A stretch of DNA of 22,704 nt from a virus. Taxonomy: Duplodnaviria; Heunggongvirae; Uroviricota; Caudoviricetes. The stretch lies in IMG/VR virus record IMGVR_UViG_2693429524_000015, one strand, 5' to 3'. The position numbers and the translations under genes were made by a program. Below the pieces are notes generated by a model, which saw only the letters and a list, made by a program, of their open reading frames with translations, was not told the DNA's origin and ran no database searches. Shown here in pieces: positions 1-10,679 of the stretch (position 1 is the first letter of the stretch; the number at the start of each line of letters is the position of its first letter).

Positions 1-1005
1 TTAATCCCCCGTGGACACTGCGTGGACACTTACGCCACCTTTCAGCGGATTAAGGGCCACCGCATCCTGCAGGTAATCCGGTGCAAAATGCGCATATGCC
101 ATTGTTTGCTGAATGGTTGCGTGACCAAGAATCTTCTGAAGCGCAATAATGTTTCCTCCGTTCATCACAAAATGGCTGGCGAACGTATGCCGCAGCACAT
201 GTGCAGCCTGGCCTTTTGGTAAATCGGGCTTAACTCTTTTCAGCGCCAGGCAGAATTCCCGGTACTTCACCTCAAACAAGCCGCCTGTTTCTCTGGTTTT
301 GATCGCCTCACAAACTGCCTGCGAAATTGGCACTGTTCTCTTCCGGCCATTTTTGGTTTCAAGAAACGTTACACGGTTATGAACTATCTGTTCACCACGA
401 AGCTTACAAGCTTCACTCCAGCGCGCCCCTGTGCTTAAACACAAAAGCGCAACACGCCAGTAGTCGCCCTCCAGTGTATCGAGCAATAGCGCCACTTCCT
501 TCTGTGACAGGAACGCCATTTCTCGTGGAGATACATAAAGAATAGAAATTCCCCTTACTGGATGTTCTGCATCCCAAAGACCTATTTTTTTCAGCACGGT
601 AAACATTCCGGATAACCGATTCATGTACCTGTTAGCAGATGACGGTTTCAATCCATCAGCTATCTTTTGAGAACGCCACGCGATAATTTTCAGCTTATCA
701 AGATCCACAGCCTGCATATCAGCGCCAAGCTCATTGATTATGTTGCGCAGTTGTTTTCGGTCTTCTTCCGCCTTACGCCTGTGCTGGCCGTGATACATCC
801 ACCACAACTCAAGCAAATCATTTAGCGTTCGACGATCACGGTAGCCCTGTATATATTCCCGCTTTTCAGCGTTCGCCATGATGTAGCGTTCAGTGGCCAC
901 CGCTACCGATTTTTTGTCAAATACCTTACGCACGCGCTTTCCCTTGCGTCCGTTCGGCCTGATGTCCAGCAAATAACGACCATCTTCGAGCTTCTTAATC
1001 GACAT
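1..1005 (-). CDS. int: Tyrosine integrase, P2 Int-like
   Basis: ORF 1..1020 minus. N-terminus MSIKKLEDGRY...DIRPNGRKGKR and C-terminal HVLRHTFASH...LGH...YAHF tyrosine-recombinase motifs resemble P2 Int. Start set at MSIKK (1005), not the upstream MEGFV. Confidence 0.9.
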   Translation of the reverse strand: MSIKKLEDGRYLLDIRPNGRKGKRVRKVFDKKSVAVATERYIMANAEKREYIQGYRDRRTLNDLLELWWMYHGQHRRKAEEDRKQLRNIINELGADMQAVDLDKLKIIAWRSQKIADGLKPSSANRYMNRLSGMFTVLKKIGLWDAEHPVRGISILYVSPREMAFLSQKEVALLLDTLEGDYWRVALLCLSTGARWSEACKLRGEQIVHNRVTFLETKNGRKRTVPISQAVCEAIKTRETGGLFEVKYREFCLALKRVKPDLPKGQAAHVLRHTFASHFVMNGGNIIALQKILGHATIQQTMAYAHFAPDYLQDAVALNPLKGGVSVHAVSTGD

Positions 1006-1101
1006 TACGAAGCCCTCCAATGAACCGCTCTACAATTTCTCCAGCCTCTTTCCAGCAATAATCAGACCAGACAAAAAGCAGGTCTAACCAGTTTTCTGGC
1101 C

Positions 1102-3824: not shown

Positions 3825-3965
3825 GCACCTCCAACTGCCGGAAACCACGTCGGGCTTCAGCAGCTCATCCGGCAGCAAAACAAACTCCATTAATTCCTGT
3901 TCCGGGCCTTTCCTGCACCTTGCGGCGGGAGGCCTTCGCACATCTGTAACAAGAGGATTGCCGCA

Positions 3966-4331
3966 ATGATTCTCGCCAACGACTTTCTTGAATACCTGCT
4001 CAACACAGAGCGTGATCTTGCCGCTCGCGTGCGTGATCGTTATGACATGTACCTGAAATCCCTGTCTGTACCGCAGCTCGCTGACGGAAAGATTGTTATT
4101 GATGGTCGCTACATGATTGACAGCCACGAGGGAAATTACAGGCTTTACCGCATTGAAGATGGCACCCCGTCCGTTATTGGCATTTACCAGCGCCCATCCT
4201 CTGCAATCGTCGATGTGATTGCCGACAGCATCCGCATCACACATCGCCATGCCGACACAGAAGACACCGTGCTGGAAATTCAGCGGCTGGCTACAGTCTG
4301 CCGCGACACCCTGAATGGCATGACGAAGTAA
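3966..4331 (+). CDS. Hypothetical early protein
   Basis: 121-aa ORF with RBS agagga, directly upstream of the A gene. Confidence 0.55.
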   Translation: MILANDFLEYLLNTERDLAARVRDRYDMYLKSLSVPQLADGKIVIDGRYMIDSHEGNYRLYRIEDGTPSVIGIYQRPSSAIVDVIADSIRITHRHADTEDTVLEIQRLATVCRDTLNGMTK

Positions 4332-4337
4332 ATCACT

Positions 4338-7160
4338 ATGACGGCAGAGTACATCAGGGACTGGCAACAACCGCGCCACGCAGTGGGGCGTGAAGGAACG
4401 GGGATCCCCGCTCCTGAATCCGCGCTTTCCTCCTGGCTGGATGCCTACCGGGTAGAGAACGAGCGCCGCCAGGAAATGGCTGATGCGGCGTTCTCCGCCA
4501 CGCCACTGGGCAACCTGATTAATAAAAGCCTGGACGCACAGGAAAAACAGGACAAAACCATCACACTGGCAGGAGACGCCAGAAAACAGGCACGCGGCGC
4601 GGTGGATGAAGCCATGGCCTCGCTGCGCCTGCTGCCGTCCTATCTGCGCGATCCGCTTATTCGCCACCTCTCCTTCCTGCGCAAAAAACAGGAAGCCGAT
4701 CGCCGGAAAGGCAAAAAGAGCTGGCAGGCGGAACGCTATGCACGCGGAACCCTGCGCAAAATATTCGAACGTCTGGATCGCACTGACGGACACTGGCTGA
4801 CACCGGGTTATCGCTCCCTTGCCGGACGCGAACGCCTGGACGATTTGCTTTACCTGCCGCAGCTCAACAAACACCAGATACAGACGCTGGCCACCATGAC
4901 GGCGGCGATGTTCAGCAGCACCTTCGAAAAACTCTGCGATGGCTTTGGCGCGACCGATGGCGAACTGACCATGGATGTAACGCTGAAGGCGTATCAGATG
5001 CTGGCCCGCATGGCGTTACACCTGCACATCATGCCTCCACATTATGACGCACTGACAACAGATAAAGACCGGAGGAACGAACCGGACACGGAGCTGCTGC
5101 CGGGCGCAATCCTTCGCCTGACCTGTGCGGAATGGTGGAAACGCAAACTGTGGCTGTTACGTTGCGAGTGGAGAGAAGAACAACTCCGCGCCGCCTGTCT
5201 GGTTTCCAGAAAAACATCACCCTATCTGAGCCAGGACGCGTTAAGCGAGTTTCGCGCACAGCGCGAGAAAACACGCGATTTCCTGAAAAGTTTCATGCTG
5301 GAAAACGAAGACGGGTTCACGATTGATCTCGAGACAGTGTATTACGCGGGAGTAAGTAACCCGGTTCACCGTAAGGCAGAAATGATGGCCACCATGAAGG
5401 GGCTGGAACTTCTGGCCGAAGCCCGTGGCGACAAAGCGGTGTTTCTAACTGTCACCTGCCCGTCAAAATACCACGCCACAACAGAGAACGGTCATCCGAA
5501 TCCCAAATGGAACGGGGCCACCATGCGCGACTCCAGCGATTACCTGGTTAACACGTTTTTTGCAGCGGTCCGCAAGAAACTGAACCGCGACGGCCTGCGC
5601 TGGTATGGCATCCGCACGGTGGAGCCTCACCATGACGGCACCGTGCACTGGCATATGATGGTCTTTGCTCATCCGGAAGAAATCGACACCATTGTGTCCC
5701 ACACCCGCGATATTGCCATTCAGGAAGATCGTCACGAGCTGGGTGATGATATTACCCCACGCTTTAAGGCGGAGTACGTCGACGGCTCAAAAGGCACGCC
5801 AACCAGCTACATCGCCACCTACATCGGAAAGAACCTGGACAGCCGCGCCGTGGATGGCATCGACCCGAAAACGGGCAAGCCACGCGTTGACCACGAAACA
5901 GGTAAATCAATGGCCGAGAGCGTGGAGCGAGCCATCGGCTGGGCGCGCCTTCACCGGGTCCGCCAGTTCCAGTTCTTTGGCATCCCCTCCCGTCAGGTGT
6001 GGCGTGAACTCCGCCGCCTTGCCAGCCAGATGGCACGCAACCCGGAAGGCCCGCAACGGCTGAAGGATGACGCAATGGATGCGGTACTCGCTGCCGCTGA
6101 TGCCGGATGTTTTGCCACCTACATTGAAAAACAGGGTGGCGTACTTGTTCCGCGCAAGGACTACCTGATTCGCACAGCCTACGACCTCGCAGATGAGCTG
6201 AACGATTACGGCGAACAGAGTGTACAGATTTACGGGATCTGGTCGCCATTCATCGGGGAATCCTCCCGTGTGTGCACGCATCCGGATAACTGGAAGCTGG
6301 TAAGACGTAAACCGGAAGCGGAAGACAGCGCCCGCGAAAATGGTTTTGACCTTCAGGGCGGCCCTGCCGCCCCTTGGACTCGTGGCAATAACTGTCCCCG
6401 TGTACAGGAAACAGGCAACAACGGGACAGAACAGCCGGAAGAACGGCCAGCACCGTGGCCGCAGCTTCCTGACGGCGTTGAAGTAAATGAATGGATGCGC
6501 TCACTGAAACGGCACGAACGCCGGGCGCTGATGCGTTCGCTTCGTGACAAACAGGCAAAAAACAGCAGCGATGAAATGCAGAACTGGACACAGAGCCGCA
6601 AACAGCAGCGGCCTTTGCCTGATAACCACGAGTTACTCGCTAAAGAATGGCGGGAGTCTGCTGAATCTCTCGGCCTGCATATCGGTGAACAACAGATGCA
6701 GCACCTGTTACGGGGCGGCAGTCTGTACGTTGACGGCAGCATCATTGCACCGCAGGGATTTGAAATTGTACGCAAACCGGATACCCGCCCGGACAGCCGA
6801 ATCACGCAGCTCTGGCAGCGTCTGAGCCGTAATCATGGCGTAAGCAGCACGGAGATCCGCCATAACCCGGTCGCCAGCTATCTGGCACAGCTGGGGGCAT
6901 CAGACCCTGAAGCCGCCGCACGCCTGGCATCCACACTTCAGCAGGACCAGAACACCATGAAAACACCCGTTACCGTGCTTTCTGACATGCTGCGCGCCAT
7001 CCGCGACGCAGAGCACGCACAGAGAATCAGTGAAACCACTGAACGCGCCAGCCGCAAAGCAGACCTGCTGCGGGGTGGCCTGACCAGTGGAAACAAAAAA
7101 CAGACAGAAACGGGACTCACGAATCCCGTAAATGAGCAAAAAACGCGCAGCGATATATGA
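4338..7160 (+). CDS. A: Rolling-circle replication initiator endonuclease, P2 gpA-like, with a long C-terminal extension
   Basis: 940 aa. HUH-type motif VHWHMMVF and paired tyrosines SYIATYIGK (Y-x3-Y) as in P2 A. The protein is about 180 aa longer than P2 A as I recall it. Confidence 0.9.
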   Translation: MTAEYIRDWQQPRHAVGREGTGIPAPESALSSWLDAYRVENERRQEMADAAFSATPLGNLINKSLDAQEKQDKTITLAGDARKQARGAVDEAMASLRLLPSYLRDPLIRHLSFLRKKQEADRRKGKKSWQAERYARGTLRKIFERLDRTDGHWLTPGYRSLAGRERLDDLLYLPQLNKHQIQTLATMTAAMFSSTFEKLCDGFGATDGELTMDVTLKAYQMLARMALHLHIMPPHYDALTTDKDRRNEPDTELLPGAILRLTCAEWWKRKLWLLRCEWREEQLRAACLVSRKTSPYLSQDALSEFRAQREKTRDFLKSFMLENEDGFTIDLETVYYAGVSNPVHRKAEMMATMKGLELLAEARGDKAVFLTVTCPSKYHATTENGHPNPKWNGATMRDSSDYLVNTFFAAVRKKLNRDGLRWYGIRTVEPHHDGTVHWHMMVFAHPEEIDTIVSHTRDIAIQEDRHELGDDITPRFKAEYVDGSKGTPTSYIATYIGKNLDSRAVDGIDPKTGKPRVDHETGKSMAESVERAIGWARLHRVRQFQFFGIPSRQVWRELRRLASQMARNPEGPQRLKDDAMDAVLAAADAGCFATYIEKQGGVLVPRKDYLIRTAYDLADELNDYGEQSVQIYGIWSPFIGESSRVCTHPDNWKLVRRKPEAEDSARENGFDLQGGPAAPWTRGNNCPRVQETGNNGTEQPEERPAPWPQLPDGVEVNEWMRSLKRHERRALMRSLRDKQAKNSSDEMQNWTQSRKQQRPLPDNHELLAKEWRESAESLGLHIGEQQMQHLLRGGSLYVDGSIIAPQGFEIVRKPDTRPDSRITQLWQRLSRNHGVSSTEIRHNPVASYLAQLGASDPEAAARLASTLQQDQNTMKTPVTVLSDMLRAIRDAEHAQRISETTERASRKADLLRGGLTSGNKKQTETGLTNPVNEQKTRSDI

Positions 7161-7210
7161 AGCGCGCACAAAACAGGCAAAAACGGGATTTCAGAATCCC
7201 GTAAACGATT
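7092..7210. repeat. Two copies of a ~40-bp direct repeat, each with an internal hairpin; candidate parC-like centromere/operator
   Basis: Copy 1 about 7092-7140 (acaaaaaacagacagaaacgggactcacgaatcccgtaaatga), copy 2 about 7167-7210 (acaaaacaggcaaaaacgggatttcagaatcccgtaaacga). Copy 2 contains a perfect 8-bp inverted repeat acgggatt/aatcccgt. The copies flank a GC/AT-rich spacer upstream of the parM-like gene. Confidence 0.5.
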
Positions 7211-7236
7211 AATTAATCAACATAAGGAAAACCGAC

Positions 7237-8196
7237 ATGAAAATTTACATCGACGACGGCTCCACCAACATCAAGCTGGCATGGACTGAGAACGGCGAAC
7301 GCCGCAACGCCATCAGCCCGAACAGCTTCAAGTCGGAATGGTCTGCGCCGTTCGGTGGCTCGCAGCCTGCTAACTACATGCTTGATGGCGTGCGCTATGG
7401 TTTTGATCCGGTCAGCGATCGCTTTGTCCAGACGACCGACACGCAATACCAGTACAGCGATGTGAATGTCATTGCCATTCATCACGCGCTGGTCAAATCA
7501 GACATCACGCCACAGGAAGTGGATGTGGTTGTTACCCTGCCACTGAGCGAATATTTCGACACAAACGCACAGCCGGACATGGCCAACATCAACCGCAAAA
7601 AAGCGAACGTCATGCGCCCGGTGGAGTACCAGAACGGCGAAGCATTCACTATCCGTAACGTACGGGTTATGCCTGAATCCATTCCGGCTGGCTTTAAAGC
7701 ACTGGCTGACATGAGTCCGTTTGAATCCCTGCTGATTGTGGATTTGGGCGGAACCACGCTGGATGTGGCAAAGGTTCAGGGGCAACTGGCAGGTATCAGC
7801 CAGGTGTTTTGCGATCCACACGTAGGCGTTTCTCTTATGGCCGATGCCGTACTGTCGGTGATGGCCACTAACGGTATGCGCACCAGTCACCACATCGCCA
7901 ATACCATTATCGAACATCGCCATAATGAAGCCTGGCTGCGCCAGCACATCCACAATGACGCGCATTACGCCAGCCTGATGGCGGTTATTCGTGAAAAGGA
8001 AGAAACACTGAAACAACGCGTGATCCGCGCGCTGGCGGTTTTTTCGGGTTACGGGCGGGTGATGGTTGTCGGTGGCGGGGCGGAGATTGTGGCACCCGCT
8101 ATCCGCGAAGCCTGCGGAGTTAATGCGACTTTCATCGCGGACGGGGTGCCACAGTTTGCTCTGGTTAATGGGCTGTACGCAATGGACAAGGAGTAA
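7237..8196 (+). CDS. parM: Actin-like segregation ATPase, ParM/StbA family
   Basis: 319 aa. Actin-fold motifs MKIYIDDGSTNIKLAW, LIVDLGGTTLDV and VMVVGGGAE. From memory it aligns along its whole length with plasmid R1 ParM. RBS aaggaaa upstream. Confidence 0.8.
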   Translation: MKIYIDDGSTNIKLAWTENGERRNAISPNSFKSEWSAPFGGSQPANYMLDGVRYGFDPVSDRFVQTTDTQYQYSDVNVIAIHHALVKSDITPQEVDVVVTLPLSEYFDTNAQPDMANINRKKANVMRPVEYQNGEAFTIRNVRVMPESIPAGFKALADMSPFESLLIVDLGGTTLDVAKVQGQLAGISQVFCDPHVGVSLMADAVLSVMATNGMRTSHHIANTIIEHRHNEAWLRQHIHNDAHYASLMAVIREKEETLKQRVIRALAVFSGYGRVMVVGGGAEIVAPAIREACGVNATFIADGVPQFALVNGLYAMDKE

Positions 8197-8200
8197 ACCA

Positions 8201-8512
8201 ATGACGACACCAACCAGACGGATAAGTTTCTATCTGAAGCCCGCCGCCGTCAAGAACGAAGGAGAAGCATGCGCCTGGCTGGACAGCCTTACACCAGAAG
8301 CCCGCAAAAGCGGCCAACGCGTGGCTTTTCTGGCCGGGCTGGCACTTCTGAAGACGAATCCGGCAGAGGCTTACCGACTGGCCGCATGGGCTGATGATGA
8401 GATGTTACCTGTGACACAAATCAGCTCAAAAAAGTTTGAAGCACAGTCTGCACCAGTGGCTAAGATAACCAGCCAGATGGCTGGGAATATCCGGGCGTTA
8501 TTTCCTGAGTAA
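8201..8512 (+). CDS. parR: ParR-like centromere-binding adaptor (putative)
   Basis: 103 aa; start 4 nt after the parM stop with RBS aaggag. N-terminus RRISFYLKPAAV...AWLDSLTPEARKSGQRVAFLAGLALL resembles R1 ParR (RRTIAFKLNP...DTLDSIPQGERSRLNRAALTAGLALY) as recalled. Confidence 0.7.
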   Translation: MTTPTRRISFYLKPAAVKNEGEACAWLDSLTPEARKSGQRVAFLAGLALLKTNPAEAYRLAAWADDEMLPVTQISSKKFEAQSAPVAKITSQMAGNIRALFPE

Positions 8513-8640
8513 AAGCATCTGCGCGAAAAATGCTCACGTTTATAGAGACAGTATCATTCCATTTGGCACACTTACTTCAATAATCGATCTGTTAAACAAA
8601 TAGATTGTCTATTATCTATCGATTAAAACGATCAATTATC

Positions 8641-8668
8641 TTGACAGTAATGTGCCTTTTTGTAAGAT
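8641..8668 (+). promoter_or_regulatory. Candidate sigma70 promoter (TTGACA-N16-TAAGAT)
   Basis: ttgaca at 8641-8646 and taagat at 8663-8668, downstream of an AT-rich palindrome-rich region. Confidence 0.4.
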
Positions 8669-8774
8669 CGTTCGCATTGTGAGCGACAAGATAATTGCGC
8701 GGCATTGTCCATGCAAAACGCCCCAATAGCAGCAACTATTGGGGCGTAAAACTCGGTCGGACTCACTTAACCTG

Positions 8775-8860
8775 ATATGCGTGCCTTCCGAAGTAAATCA
8801 AAATGTGCGTCGTATATTTTATTGCTTACACGCACCTCTGTAAAGGCACGCATATTTTTC
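8775..8860 (+). terminator. Long stem-loop with T5 tail; candidate intrinsic terminator, attenuator or 3' end of a small RNA
   Basis: Perfect 13-bp arms atatgcgtgcctt (8775-8787) and aaggcacgcatat (8843-8855), enclosing an inner 6-bp stem gtgcgt/acgcac, followed by ttttt (8855-8859). Confidence 0.45.
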
Positions 8861-8876
8861 CTATGAGGTAAATAAA

Positions 8877-9146
8877 GTGCGGGCTAAAACAGGTATTTGC
8901 AAGAACCCTCATCGTTATAATCCAACATTTCTGTCTCTCCCTGAATATCAAGGACAAGAAGGTCGGCACAAATGCGCTGCCTGTGCTTTTGAGCTAGGCA
9001 TAAAAGATGCGCTTGAAGGACGCGCTATGGCTCAGAATGATTTAGTTTTAGCTAACATTCCGTTTAGCCAGGCTGGAACTGTAAGGCACAGAGATGCCTA
9101 TGAAGCATATGTTCGTGGTTGGCGATTAATAAACAGCAACAATTGA
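8877..9146 (+). CDS. Orphan 89-aa protein with Cys/His cluster (hypothetical)
   Basis: GTG start with RBS gagg 8 nt upstream. C8, H12, H31, C33, C36 could form a metal-binding site. Followed 10 nt later by a clean intrinsic terminator. No family recognised. Confidence 0.55.
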   Translation: MRAKTGICKNPHRYNPTFLSLPEYQGQEGRHKCAACAFELGIKDALEGRAMAQNDLVLANIPFSQAGTVRHRDAYEAYVRGWRLINSNN

Positions 9147-9155
9147 TACTTTTGA

Positions 9156-9178
9156 AGCGCCGATAAGGCGCTTTTTTT
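9156..9178 (+). terminator. Rho-independent terminator
   Basis: agcgcc-gataa-ggcgct stem-loop followed by tttttt. Confidence 0.7.
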
Positions 9179-9179
9179 G

Positions 9180-9330
9180 TTTGCACGATAGTGCACAAGT
9201 TTGCACAATTTTTTTGAACGACTTTTTGTACTTCCGGCCCGCGTGGTGGCTGGATCCGTCAAGGATCCGTACGTGCACAAAAAAACGCGTTTTTTCTGCG
9301 CGCAGGTGACGGGGGAACAGCCCGCGTTTC
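9180..9330. other. Candidate cos / packaging region
   Basis: Sits where P2 has cos, upstream of Q. tgcac occurs at exact 10-bp spacing (9182, 9192, 9202); ggatccgt is directly repeated; palindrome aaaaaacgcgtttttt (9280-9295); G-rich ggtgacgggggaacagcc (9306-9323) loosely resembles the P2/186 cohesive-end sequence as recalled. Confidence 0.3.
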
Positions 9331-9632
9331 AGGGGGTAAATAGCATTCCCTGAACGATGTCGCAGAGATAGAACAGAATGGCTGTATTTCTCACGCTGAG
9401 CGTGAAAAAGACGTGAGGGCTTTTGATTTGATGGGGTGAAAGGTAAGGCCGTCAAAATCGCACTGAGACGGCGAGAACATGCAGTCAACGCGGTGGGATT
9501 GCGTAAGAGTCTGACTGTCGATGATGGCAATCAGCAGGAAAGCATCGTGAAATTATCTGACTGATACAGGAGCTGGAGAGTCGGGGCATAAATTTTTTAT
9601 GCCCCGGCGAAGCAGCAGACAAGCGAAGCGCG

Positions 9633-10679
9633 TCAGGATGTGGGCTGGGTGTCTAACAGTGCGTAAGGGTTAAAGCGGATCACCTCTTCGCCAAGCCAGT
9701 CATTGATGTGCTTCATGGCCTCCATGACGGGCATCAGCTCGTTAATTGCGTAAACCCGCGCGGCCTTCTCCACATCACCAAACGCACTTTTTTCGCCCGG
9801 CATCGCCCCCATCAGTTGCGGCGGAACGCGGTGCGCAGCCAGCACATCATCACGGGATGCCGCCTTAACATTCATGAACTCATCCTTTGCGGTGATCTGC
9901 TGGAACGGCAAAATTTGCACCCCTTCTTTGCCCCCGTTGGGCGCATGAATGAGCACGTTTTTAAATGCACCACCACCACGCGCACCCTGTAACGTTTCTT
10001 TCAGGGAGTCCATGCTTTCGCGGTTTACCTGCGCTGCACCGATGTAGATGATGCACCCGGCGTGGGATCCGTTGTCGTAATACAGTTTTCTGAACATGTC
10101 CGCCGAATGAGAAAGGCTGGCCGAGAGTAATGCGCCAAGATATTCCGGCATGCCGTAGATTTCCTGGTTAATATCCGGATTCATCAGGTGGCACACTTTG
10201 CCAGGGCGAAACTGGAACGCGTCCTTGCCATCCTGCACATACCACCATGATTCAAGATCGCTTCCGCGTCGCATGTATTTCGCCAGGGCGTGCCGTAATT
10301 TAAGCGGTTCGCCGAGCATATTGCTCCGAAGCTCAAGGAATGCGTTACCGAACACAAACCAGTCCAGCGCCAGCGCCGAGAAATCCTGCCGGGAAAGCAG
10401 CGGGTGCGGGATGTAGCACCCGAGCAATACATTACGCTTAAAGTAAAGCGCAGACTGATGCCAGGACGTTTGCCGGGCGGCTCTTGCCAGACCGTACCAG
10501 TCCACCGGGGTTTCATACCACCGCCCGTTATCAGCACAGTACATATTGTCCAGCAGGTCATGCCCGGTCAGGCGATAAGGACCATCAAATGTGAATGCAC
10601 TGAGCGATGATTCTTTCCTGAGCGCATCAGCGAGATCAATGCGTGAACTCATGCGCACTTTTTTATTTTTTCTGCTCAT
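9633..10679 (-). CDS. Q: Portal protein, P2 gpQ-like
   Basis: 348 aa on the minus strand, transcribed toward the cos region; start overlaps the terminase stop. Size and position as P2 Q. Confidence 0.88.
   Translation of the reverse strand: MSRKNKKVRMSSRIDLADALRKESSLSAFTFDGPYRLTGHDLLDNMYCADNGRWYETPVDWYGLARAARQTSWHQSALYFKRNVLLGCYIPHPLLSRQDFSALALDWFVFGNAFLELRSNMLGEPLKLRHALAKYMRRGSDLESWWYVQDGKDAFQFRPGKVCHLMNPDINQEIYGMPEYLGALLSASLSHSADMFRKLYYDNGSHAGCIIYIGAAQVNRESMDSLKETLQGARGGGAFKNVLIHAPNGGKEGVQILPFQQITAKDEFMNVKAASRDDVLAAHRVPPQLMGAMPGEKSAFGDVEKAARVYAINELMPVMEAMKHINDWLGEEVIRFNPYALLDTQPTS

Follow-up and report, generated by a model that had tools for sequence, protein, structure and literature searches.

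The prophage sequence in IMG/VR virus record IMGVR_UViG_2693429524_000015, analyzed here over its full 22,704 nucleotides (the window), carries a plasmid-type parMRC partition cassette, made up of the actin-like ATPase gene parM, the adaptor gene parR, and a pair of upstream repeats laid out like the centromere site parC. The prophage belongs to the P2 type and, within it, to the P88 kind (Peduoviridae, genus Xuanwuvirus); the cassette is a fixed backbone module of this P88/Xuanwuvirus lineage. On balance, we lean toward the view that it is a working type II (ParMRC) DNA-segregation module that acts on circular extrachromosomal phage genomes. The initial annotation had described a plasmid-type cassette between gene A and the cos/Q end of a P2-like phage with an integrase, and all three of its parts were recovered in place. 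This is a correct rediscovery of a known and annotated feature rather than a new one, because RefSeq and PHROGs annotate the genes and Rousset et al. (2022) mention a partition system. RefSeq labels the two products "plasmid segregation protein ParM" and "plasmid partitioning/stability family protein" in more than 1000 genomes, PHROGs holds "partition protein" families for both ParM and ParR, and about a quarter of P2-like phages have been reported to carry a putative partition system, counted among the "systems" of an accessory hotspot (Rousset et al. 2022, PMC9122126). A search of the literature on P88 parMR found no functional study, and the sole direct mention was one sentence in that same paper. 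What our analysis adds is the position of the module with respect to the true cargo slot, a two-palindrome candidate centromere with a conserved spacing of 72 to 73 bp, a wider distribution among P2-like phages, and the finding that the idea of a plasmid lifestyle is weakly supported.

The ParM ATPase and its ParR partner

The protein-coding part of the cassette consists of the following features.

7237 to 8196, plus strand: parM, an actin-like segregation ATPase of 319 amino acids (Pfam, Protein Data Bank [PDB], and motif alignment)
8201 to 8512, plus strand: parR, 103 amino acids (PF10784 Plasmid_stab_B, E = 9.8e-24)
8201 to 8389, plus strand: N-terminal DNA-binding domain of ParR, ribbon-helix-helix type, residues 1 to 63
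8390 to 8458, plus strand: hypervariable disordered linker of ParR, residues 64 to 86 (structure-prediction confidence, pLDDT, and the ratio of nonsynonymous to synonymous polymorphism, pN/pS)
8459 to 8512, plus strand: C-terminal helix of ParR, presumed ParM-binding peptide (invariant N96, I97, L100, F101, and P102)

The close resemblance to R1 ParM that had been claimed for the first gene was borne out by both family profiles and structure. ParM matches PF06406 StbA_N (E = 9.7e-81) and PF21523 (E = 3e-68), both end to end, and it aligns with the solved R1 ParM structure 1mwk over residues 1 to 316 of 319 (E = 7.7e-92). Over its full length it is 46% identical to the R1-type StbA of IncF plasmids. 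Identity to plasmid versions reaches at most 52%, with the top values belonging to the ParMs of IncL/M and IncK plasmids. When aligned with seven plasmid-type homologs (three from annotated plasmids and four from genome contigs), the nucleotide-binding motifs were invariant, including DDGST at residues 6 to 10, E147, DxGGTTLD at 169 to 176, and GGG at 279 to 281, which together represent the phosphate, catalytic, and adenosine elements. As in type II partition, the ATPase is thus actin-like, belongs to the ParM/StbA family, and has its nucleotide-binding motifs intact. NCBIfam returned no above-threshold family for either ParM or ParR.

Directly 3' of parM lies the gene for a small adaptor with an N-terminal ribbon-helix-helix domain. 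Its identification as ParR-like stands on the match to PF10784, a family that also includes R1-type StbB, with which it shares 33% identity across the N-terminal 61 residues; identity to plasmid versions is at most about 33%. The program-made list of open reading frames (ORFs) gives a longer frame that opens with TTG at 8066. The ATG at 8201 is preceded by an AAGGAG Shine-Dalgarno sequence and yields 103 amino acids, a length typical of homologs. In the predicted structure, pLDDT falls below 50 at residues 72 to 85, followed by a helix at residues 87 to 100. The polymorphism data follow the same outline, with pN/pS of 0.76 for codons 64 to 90, 0.37 for the N-terminal domain, and 0.17 for the C terminus. 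The C-terminal motif N-x3-L-F-P is invariant while the linker varies freely, and it is common to the ParRs of IncL/M and IncK plasmids (the R1 counterpart is KNAMKLIN). A sequence search of the PDB returned no match for ParR even at E values up to 10. The predicted fold had a unique match, the ParR of pB171, so kinship to solved ParR structures is visible by fold comparison only.

The parR gene occurs as discrete allele classes with protein identities of about 55 to 57%, beside a ParM that is about 98% identical and a nearly identical parC. Between these classes (window 8255 to 8512, corresponding to 4152 to 4466 in locus L002), DNA similarity ends at about window position 8255, which suggests that recombination may have taken place inside parR at this point. 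The N-terminal 18 residues, which include the presumed DNA-contacting strand, stay identical.

A two-palindrome candidate centromere

Upstream of parM, at and just beyond the 3' end of the replication gene A, we identified the following elements.

7094 to 7135, no strand assigned: block 1 of the parC-like repeats, made up of an A-rich arm and palindrome 1 (GGGACTCACGAATCCC) at 7112 to 7127
7133 to 7159, plus strand: putative weak promoter-like element between the blocks, TGAGCA-15-TATATG, read by eye
7167 to 7208, no strand assigned: block 2 of the parC-like repeats, which contains palindrome 2 (GGGATTTCAGAATCCC, perfect) at 7185 to 7200
7208 to 7219, plus strand: ATTAATTAATCA, which holds an ATTAAT(C/T)AA motif

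The two blocks are direct repeats of 42 nucleotides that are 81% identical and spaced 73 bp from start to start. The stop codon of gene A is at 7158 to 7160, and block 1 sits within the 3' end of the gene, where it makes up roughly the last 22 codons. The 25-nucleotide core of the repeat, AAACGGGA-N7-ATCCCGTAAA, occurs exactly twice in the window against an expectation of 0.03, and none of 100 shuffled sequences contained it two or more times. Likewise, the 16-bp palindrome GGGATT-N4-AATCCC is found in the whole P88 genome solely at blocks 1 and 2. Across 52 distinct P88-like upstream sequences, variation was 0.02 to 0.04 in the palindrome arms and 0.22 in the center.

The likening of these repeats to parC held for their layout and failed for their units. 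Repeat blocks spaced 72 to 73 bp from start to start also lie upstream of four plasmid-type parMR loci (two annotated plasmids, including the R1 type, and two loci on genome contigs), so the overall layout of parC is shared. The units are two 16-bp palindromes, as opposed to the 2 x 5 direct 11-bp iterons of R1; at the R1-type locus L014 we saw an A/C-rich iteron array.

The site can be followed into distant relatives. A Hafnia prophage (L098) whose ParR is 75% identical to that of the window retains both palindromes and the 73-bp spacing. There, the stop codon of A falls within palindrome 1, and therefore coding constraint on A does not account for the conservation of that palindrome. The same prophage has a counterpart of the promoter-like element, TGAACA-16-TATAAG. 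Another Hafnia lineage and a Plesiomonas prophage (ParM 61 to 62% and ParR 40 to 42% identical to the window) still have pairs of GGG-N10-CCC 72 to 73 bp apart, while most of the flanking sequence has diverged. In all, the GGG...CCC ends and the 72- to 73-bp spacing are kept in four phage lineages with ParRs 40 to 75% identical. The Serratia and Enterobacter versions have another ParR N terminus (NRKISFYL) and other inverted repeats.

This pattern bears on whether the repeats are a centromere at all. Instead, they could form RNA hairpins that affect processing or stability of an A-parM mRNA, or serve as minus-strand terminators, with parMR left as an inert relic. Both palindromes are indeed terminator-like on the minus strand, and the folding energies of the corresponding RNAs are -9 and -10.7 kcal/mol (z-scores, -2.9 and -3.4). 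Yet in Plesiomonas and in Hafnia L101, the hairpins are largely lost (z-scores of -0.6 to -2.5, stems of 3 to 4 bp) whereas the GGG...CCC ends and the spacing are kept without compensatory changes, which favors a protein-binding DNA site over an RNA structure. Moreover, variants within a lineage both break and keep the pairing, and there is no plausible minus-strand gene in need of termination. An inert relic is excluded because parM is under strong purifying selection, with a pN/pS of 0.07 and an intact ORF in 88 of 88 loci. We consider this RNA-based or relic explanation very improbable.

A few natural variants deserve mention. In IMG/VR locus L046, an exact 73-bp deletion between the repeats upstream of parM at 5001 removes the region of the A stop codon and leaves a single block. 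IMG/VR locus L087 (parM again at 5001) has AGGATT in place of GGGATT in each of its two palindromes, an identical G-to-A change that may reflect gene conversion between the repeats. In addition, L087 has another 3' end of gene A in front of the module; the two meet where block 1 starts, a point that therefore marks the 5' edge of the module. Finally, the ATTAAT(C/T)AA motif, about 20 nucleotides 5' of the parM start codon, is invariant across four phage lineages (the window, L098, L100, and L101) even as the sequence around it has diverged; candidates for its role are a -10-like element and another kind of protein-binding site.

A fixed module next to a variable cargo slot

The surroundings of the cassette are as follows.

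1 to 1020, minus strand: integrase, intact, as is Cox
4338 to 7160, plus strand: gene A, replication endonuclease, 940 amino acids (PF05840 Phage_GPA, E = 5.8e-132)
8513 to 9181, no strand assigned: variable cargo slot, not part of parMRC (G+C content of 45%, gap in similarity to P88)
8580 to 8639, in the cargo slot: long AT-rich inverted repeats
8641 to 8668, in the cargo slot: promoter-like site TTGACA-16-TAAGAT
8877 to 9146, in the cargo slot: cysteine-containing ORF of 89 amino acids, whose sole match is phrog_3941 (unknown function)
9154 to 9174, in the cargo slot: strong terminator
9633 to 10679, minus strand: portal gene Q, followed by terminase gene P and head, lysis, and tail genes

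The window thus runs from the integrase through early genes, gene A, and parMRC to Q, P, and the head, lysis, and tail genes. Compared with phage P88, it is colinear and 97% identical from 3851 to 8512, unrelated from 8513 to 9181, and again 95% identical from 9182 onward. In other words, the stop codon of parR (8512) is exactly where similarity to P88 ends, to return at 9182. In the interval from this stop codon to Q, 19 unrelated clusters of cargo, ranging from 1 to 4.2 kb, were found among 55 loci. Because the variation and the mismatch to P88 both begin at 8513, the cargo hotspot starts immediately 3' of parR.

The cassette itself behaves differently. Its DNA was found in 1304 of 5426 complete Escherichia coli genomes (about 24%). 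Gene by gene, the adjacent 3' part of A was present in 1355 E. coli genomes and parM (at least 80% coverage) in 1279 of these. The parM copies are 95 to 99% identical, and parM was intact in every one of the 88 sampled loci, at the low pN/pS given above. The G+C content of parM and parR (54 to 55%) is close to that of the phage (53%), as opposed to 45% in the segment after parR. Variable cargo differs in presence or identity among near-identical phages, and parMRC did not. The proposal that the cassette is swappable cargo in the tin/old slot is therefore not upheld, given that it is fixed in the lineage, phage-like in G+C content, and intact throughout, with the variation starting 3' of parR. 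PADLOC returned no match for ParM, ParR, or the downstream ORFs, so no part was assigned to a defense family, and the ORFs of the cargo slot (8513 to 9181) matched nothing in Pfam either.

It had also been suggested that the cassette may exclude a resident plasmid. As an exclusion device, the ParR or ParM of the prophage would disturb the partition of a plasmid or rival phage through incompatibility of centromeres or filaments, and Par-mediated incompatibility is a known phenomenon among plasmids. The region between A and Q of P2-like phages is, moreover, a recognized hotspot for exclusion and defense (PMC9122126). However, the only plasmid DNA in PLSDB that resembles this parC or parMR is P88-like prophage DNA itself, and the proteins are at most 52% (ParM) and about 33% (ParR) identical to plasmid versions. 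The lack of PADLOC matches and the fixed rather than variable nature of the module also count against such a device, and the conservation of its own cis site beside the genes indicates action on the phage's own DNA. Of all the explanations weighed here, a role in plasmid incompatibility or exclusion seems to us the most improbable.

Related parMR genes, with ParMs 53 to 62% identical, occupy the same position between A and Q in P2-like prophages of Plesiomonas, Hafnia, Serratia, and Enterobacter. Because phage ParMs cluster apart from plasmid ParMs in a neighbor-joining tree, the comparison suggests that ParM has probably been associated with this phage group for a long time, as opposed to being a recent capture from a plasmid. 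Our scan of viral contigs returned only copies that were at least 98% identical; the distant phage copies came from a protein database and contig look-ups. A separate one-protein scan of genome contigs with exact peptide patterns returned nine loci. A P88-type ParM at 97% identity was also found in locus L005 (NZ_JBQPOM010000071.1), which is labeled Vagococcus sp.; the label most likely reflects enterobacterial contamination or a mislabeled assembly.

As for the neighboring sequence, the Phage_GPA domain spans only residues 179 to 503 of the 940-residue A protein, whose C-terminal 440 or so residues are without a Pfam domain, and the length of A ranges from 785 to 940 amino acids among relatives carrying parMR. 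A query with a presumed P2 cos sequence found no match at up to three mismatches; cos presumably lies in the conserved stretch from 9182 to 9632. Rfam and tRNA scans of the window returned no matches.

Integrated prophage or plasmid

Another proposal of the initial annotation, a phage-plasmid lifestyle, receives little support. In complete E. coli genomes, 1441 of 1443 parM places are chromosomal. A query spanning the attP junction, taken from a circular P88-like record, matched as split halves only and was found in one piece in 0 of 432 genomes with this type of int, so that neither circular nor tandem copies were seen. In the early region, we identified a single replication initiator, protein A (PF05840), which is of the P2 rolling-circle type. 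Phage-plasmids are recognized by extrachromosomal maintenance and a plasmid-type replication initiator, and, one circular record aside (see below), we found neither. Of two suspected episomes, "Escherichia phage 520873" and "503458," the former was ruled out, as it is a linear and decayed integrated prophage flanked by the host gene yecA. A stable plasmid lifestyle is thus poorly supported, because the copies are chromosomal, attP is never in one piece, and 520873 is integrated.

A facultative version of the idea is that ParMRC keeps P88-like phages as low-copy plasmids for many generations, besides or instead of integrating, as was speculated by Rousset et al. 2022 (PMC9122126). One record fits this view: CP148288 is a whole P88-like genome with int and attP that was deposited as a circular "plasmid" of 34,461 bp. 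Nevertheless, a single circular contig of this kind can be made by an assembler from spontaneous induction. Further points in favor of plasmid carriage are a killer gene of the hok/gef type near attP in P88-like genomes and the phage-plasmid D6, a true plasmid prophage that is served by a related ParM (47% identity). Set against this are the chromosomal location of all but two of the 1443 parM copies, the lack of an intact attP junction in the 432 genomes, the decayed state of 520873, the intact integrase and Cox, and a replication system in which we saw a cis-acting rolling-circle protein A only and no plasmid-type theta replicon. We regard facultative plasmid carriage as doubtful. A related but still more speculative thought, to which we give slightly less credence, is that P88-like phages are facultative "integrative phage-plasmids" in which, after infection or excision, A-driven rolling-circle replication, ParMRC, and the hok-type killer together might allow episomal carriage over several generations. 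If true, this state would amount to a heritable pseudolysogeny that precedes integration or lysis, and for about a quarter of E. coli strains, integrating phages and phage-plasmids would no longer be sharply distinct.

The killer gene is of the hok/gef family (MokW-like) and lies near ogr and attP, outside the window, at the following positions.

34928 to 35068 in locus L001
1291 to 1431 in locus L003
37476 to 37583 in locus L104

Both classical stability loci of R1, parMRC and hok/sok, therefore have counterparts in P88-like phages. P88-like A-parM-parR DNA also turned up in two large plasmid records, NZ_CP110658.1 (Salmonella, 272 kb) and NZ_MK439959.1 (E. coli, 228 kb), which suggests occasional integration of phages into plasmids or, alternatively, assembly artifacts.

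Proposed partition or positioning of phage DNA

From the observed identity, conservation, and layout of its parts, we infer how a segregation module in these phages may work. ParR dimers would bind both GGGATT-N4-AATCCC palindromes through their ribbon-helix-helix N termini. At 73 bp, or about seven helical turns, the spacing of these palindromes at the 3' end of gene A would place both on one face of the DNA. ATP-bound ParM filaments would then be caught at their ends by the conserved C-terminal helix of ParR, and growth of a filament between two ParR-parC complexes would drive sister DNA circles apart. The presumed targets are circular extrachromosomal phage genomes that arise from excision or infection. 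In the biology of P2, rolling-circle replication initiated by A gives monomeric double-stranded circles, which are plasmid-like substrates. The module is probably expressed within the early replicative operon together with A, since it lies directly 3' of A on the same strand and no terminator-like site was seen on the plus strand between A and parM; in other lineages, extra ORFs between these genes are on the same strand as well. The benefit would be that genomes are spread or partitioned such that copies are not lost or clumped while the host grows or filaments. Among the three roles put forward by the initial annotation, the positioning or partition of replicating or excised phage DNA appears to be the best fit.

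Some observations sit less comfortably with this segregation module. Only two candidate binding sites are visible, whereas R1 parC requires ten iterons. A sigma-70 scan of 7090 to 7236 found no promoter, the hexamers read by eye being weak and below threshold, and the timing of expression is judged from gene order alone. The palindromes of L087 changed together while the N-terminal domain of its ParR did not. The sequences of the P88 lineage are too alike for real tests of covariation, and the presumed DNA-contacting strand of ParR, TRRISFYLKP, is identical in the lineages that share GGG...CCC sites, so that a test of covariation between ParR and the palindromes carries no information. The neighbor-joining tree of ParM has no support values. 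Lastly, the lytic cycle is short, and a benefit of partition during it is not obvious.

In an alternative, the module would be a spatial organizer of lytic replication and packaging, similar to AlpAC of prophage CGP3. Here, ParM filaments would bring replicating circles to favorable sites or distribute them through SOS-filamented cells and raise burst size, without a role in inheritance. Such a function would suit the position of the cassette immediately 3' of the replicase gene with no terminator between, as well as its long conservation within phages capable of lytic growth. Furthermore, P88 is inducible by mitomycin C (PMC5285337), and efficient replication of CGP3 DNA requires AlpC (PMC4446434). 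Yet P2 and 186 replicate well without such a system, and what R1-type ParMRC is known to do is push DNA in a bipolar manner, not tether it to a site. We judge this alternative unlikely, though less so than plasmid carriage. It overlaps with the segregation reading and differs from it solely in the selected benefit. That benefit may be inheritance, efficiency of replication or packaging, or lysogenization.

Comparison with known systems

The R1/R100 system (stbA-stbB-parC) is the natural reference for the P88 module. The two share the gene order of parC, parM, and parR, a ParM that is 46% identical over its full length with identical ATPase motifs, a ParR in PF10784 with 33% identity in the N-terminal domain and a common C-terminal N-x3-L, and two upstream repeat blocks 72 to 73 bp from start to start. 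They differ in that the carrier here is an integrating P2-like phage and not a plasmid, in the two 16-bp palindromes within 42-nucleotide blocks as opposed to the 2 x 5 direct 11-bp iterons of R1, and in the shorter ParR (103 versus 117 amino acids). In addition, block 1 overlaps the end of the replicase gene and there is no clear promoter between the blocks. The ParR of pB171 (PDB 2JD3) was matched by the predicted fold of the P88 ParR, yet not by a sequence search; the parC of pB171 has a different repeat organization.

With the P2 tin/old hotspot, parMRC shares the map interval between A and Q, but it is fixed in the lineage, has a phage-like composition, lies 5' of the variable segment at 8513 to 9181, and belongs to no defense family. 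The StbA-type ParM of D6, a P1-like phage-plasmid, is likewise encoded by a phage and comes from the same family (47% identity). D6, however, lives outside the chromosome as a 91-kb plasmid prophage and must be partitioned at every generation, whereas P88-like phages integrate. A further phage system, AlpAC/alpS of the Corynebacterium prophage CGP3, also combines an actin-like filament protein with a DNA-binding adaptor and has its sites upstream of the operon. AlpAC acts on excised, replicating viral DNA and aids replication of CGP3 DNA (PMC4446434, PMC5539076). It differs from the P88 module in its actin-like family, the lack of homology to ParR, and the Gram-positive host, and its reported role is efficient replication or transport rather than partition.

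The closest functional precedent is srpMRC of the SXT/R391 integrative and conjugative elements (ICEs). Like the P88 module, srpMRC is of the ParMRC type and is strictly conserved in an integrated element that replicates as a rolling circle when excised. It is expressed only with genes for excision and mobility, and it stabilizes both the excised form and a mini-F lacking sop (PMC4489591). Unlike the P88 proteins, SrpM is distantly related to R1 ParM and SrpR is without a recognizable ParR domain; the carrier is an ICE, and its function was tested experimentally, whereas the P88 module is known here from sequence. About a quarter of complete E. coli genomes carry the P88 module under strong purifying selection, and if our interpretation is correct, it would offer a tractable E. 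coli model whose ParM is close kin of the best-studied one. More generally, the partition or positioning of transient circles by this module would extend to phages the principle known from SXT/R391, that is, that integrating elements need plasmid-like inheritance functions while they are excised.

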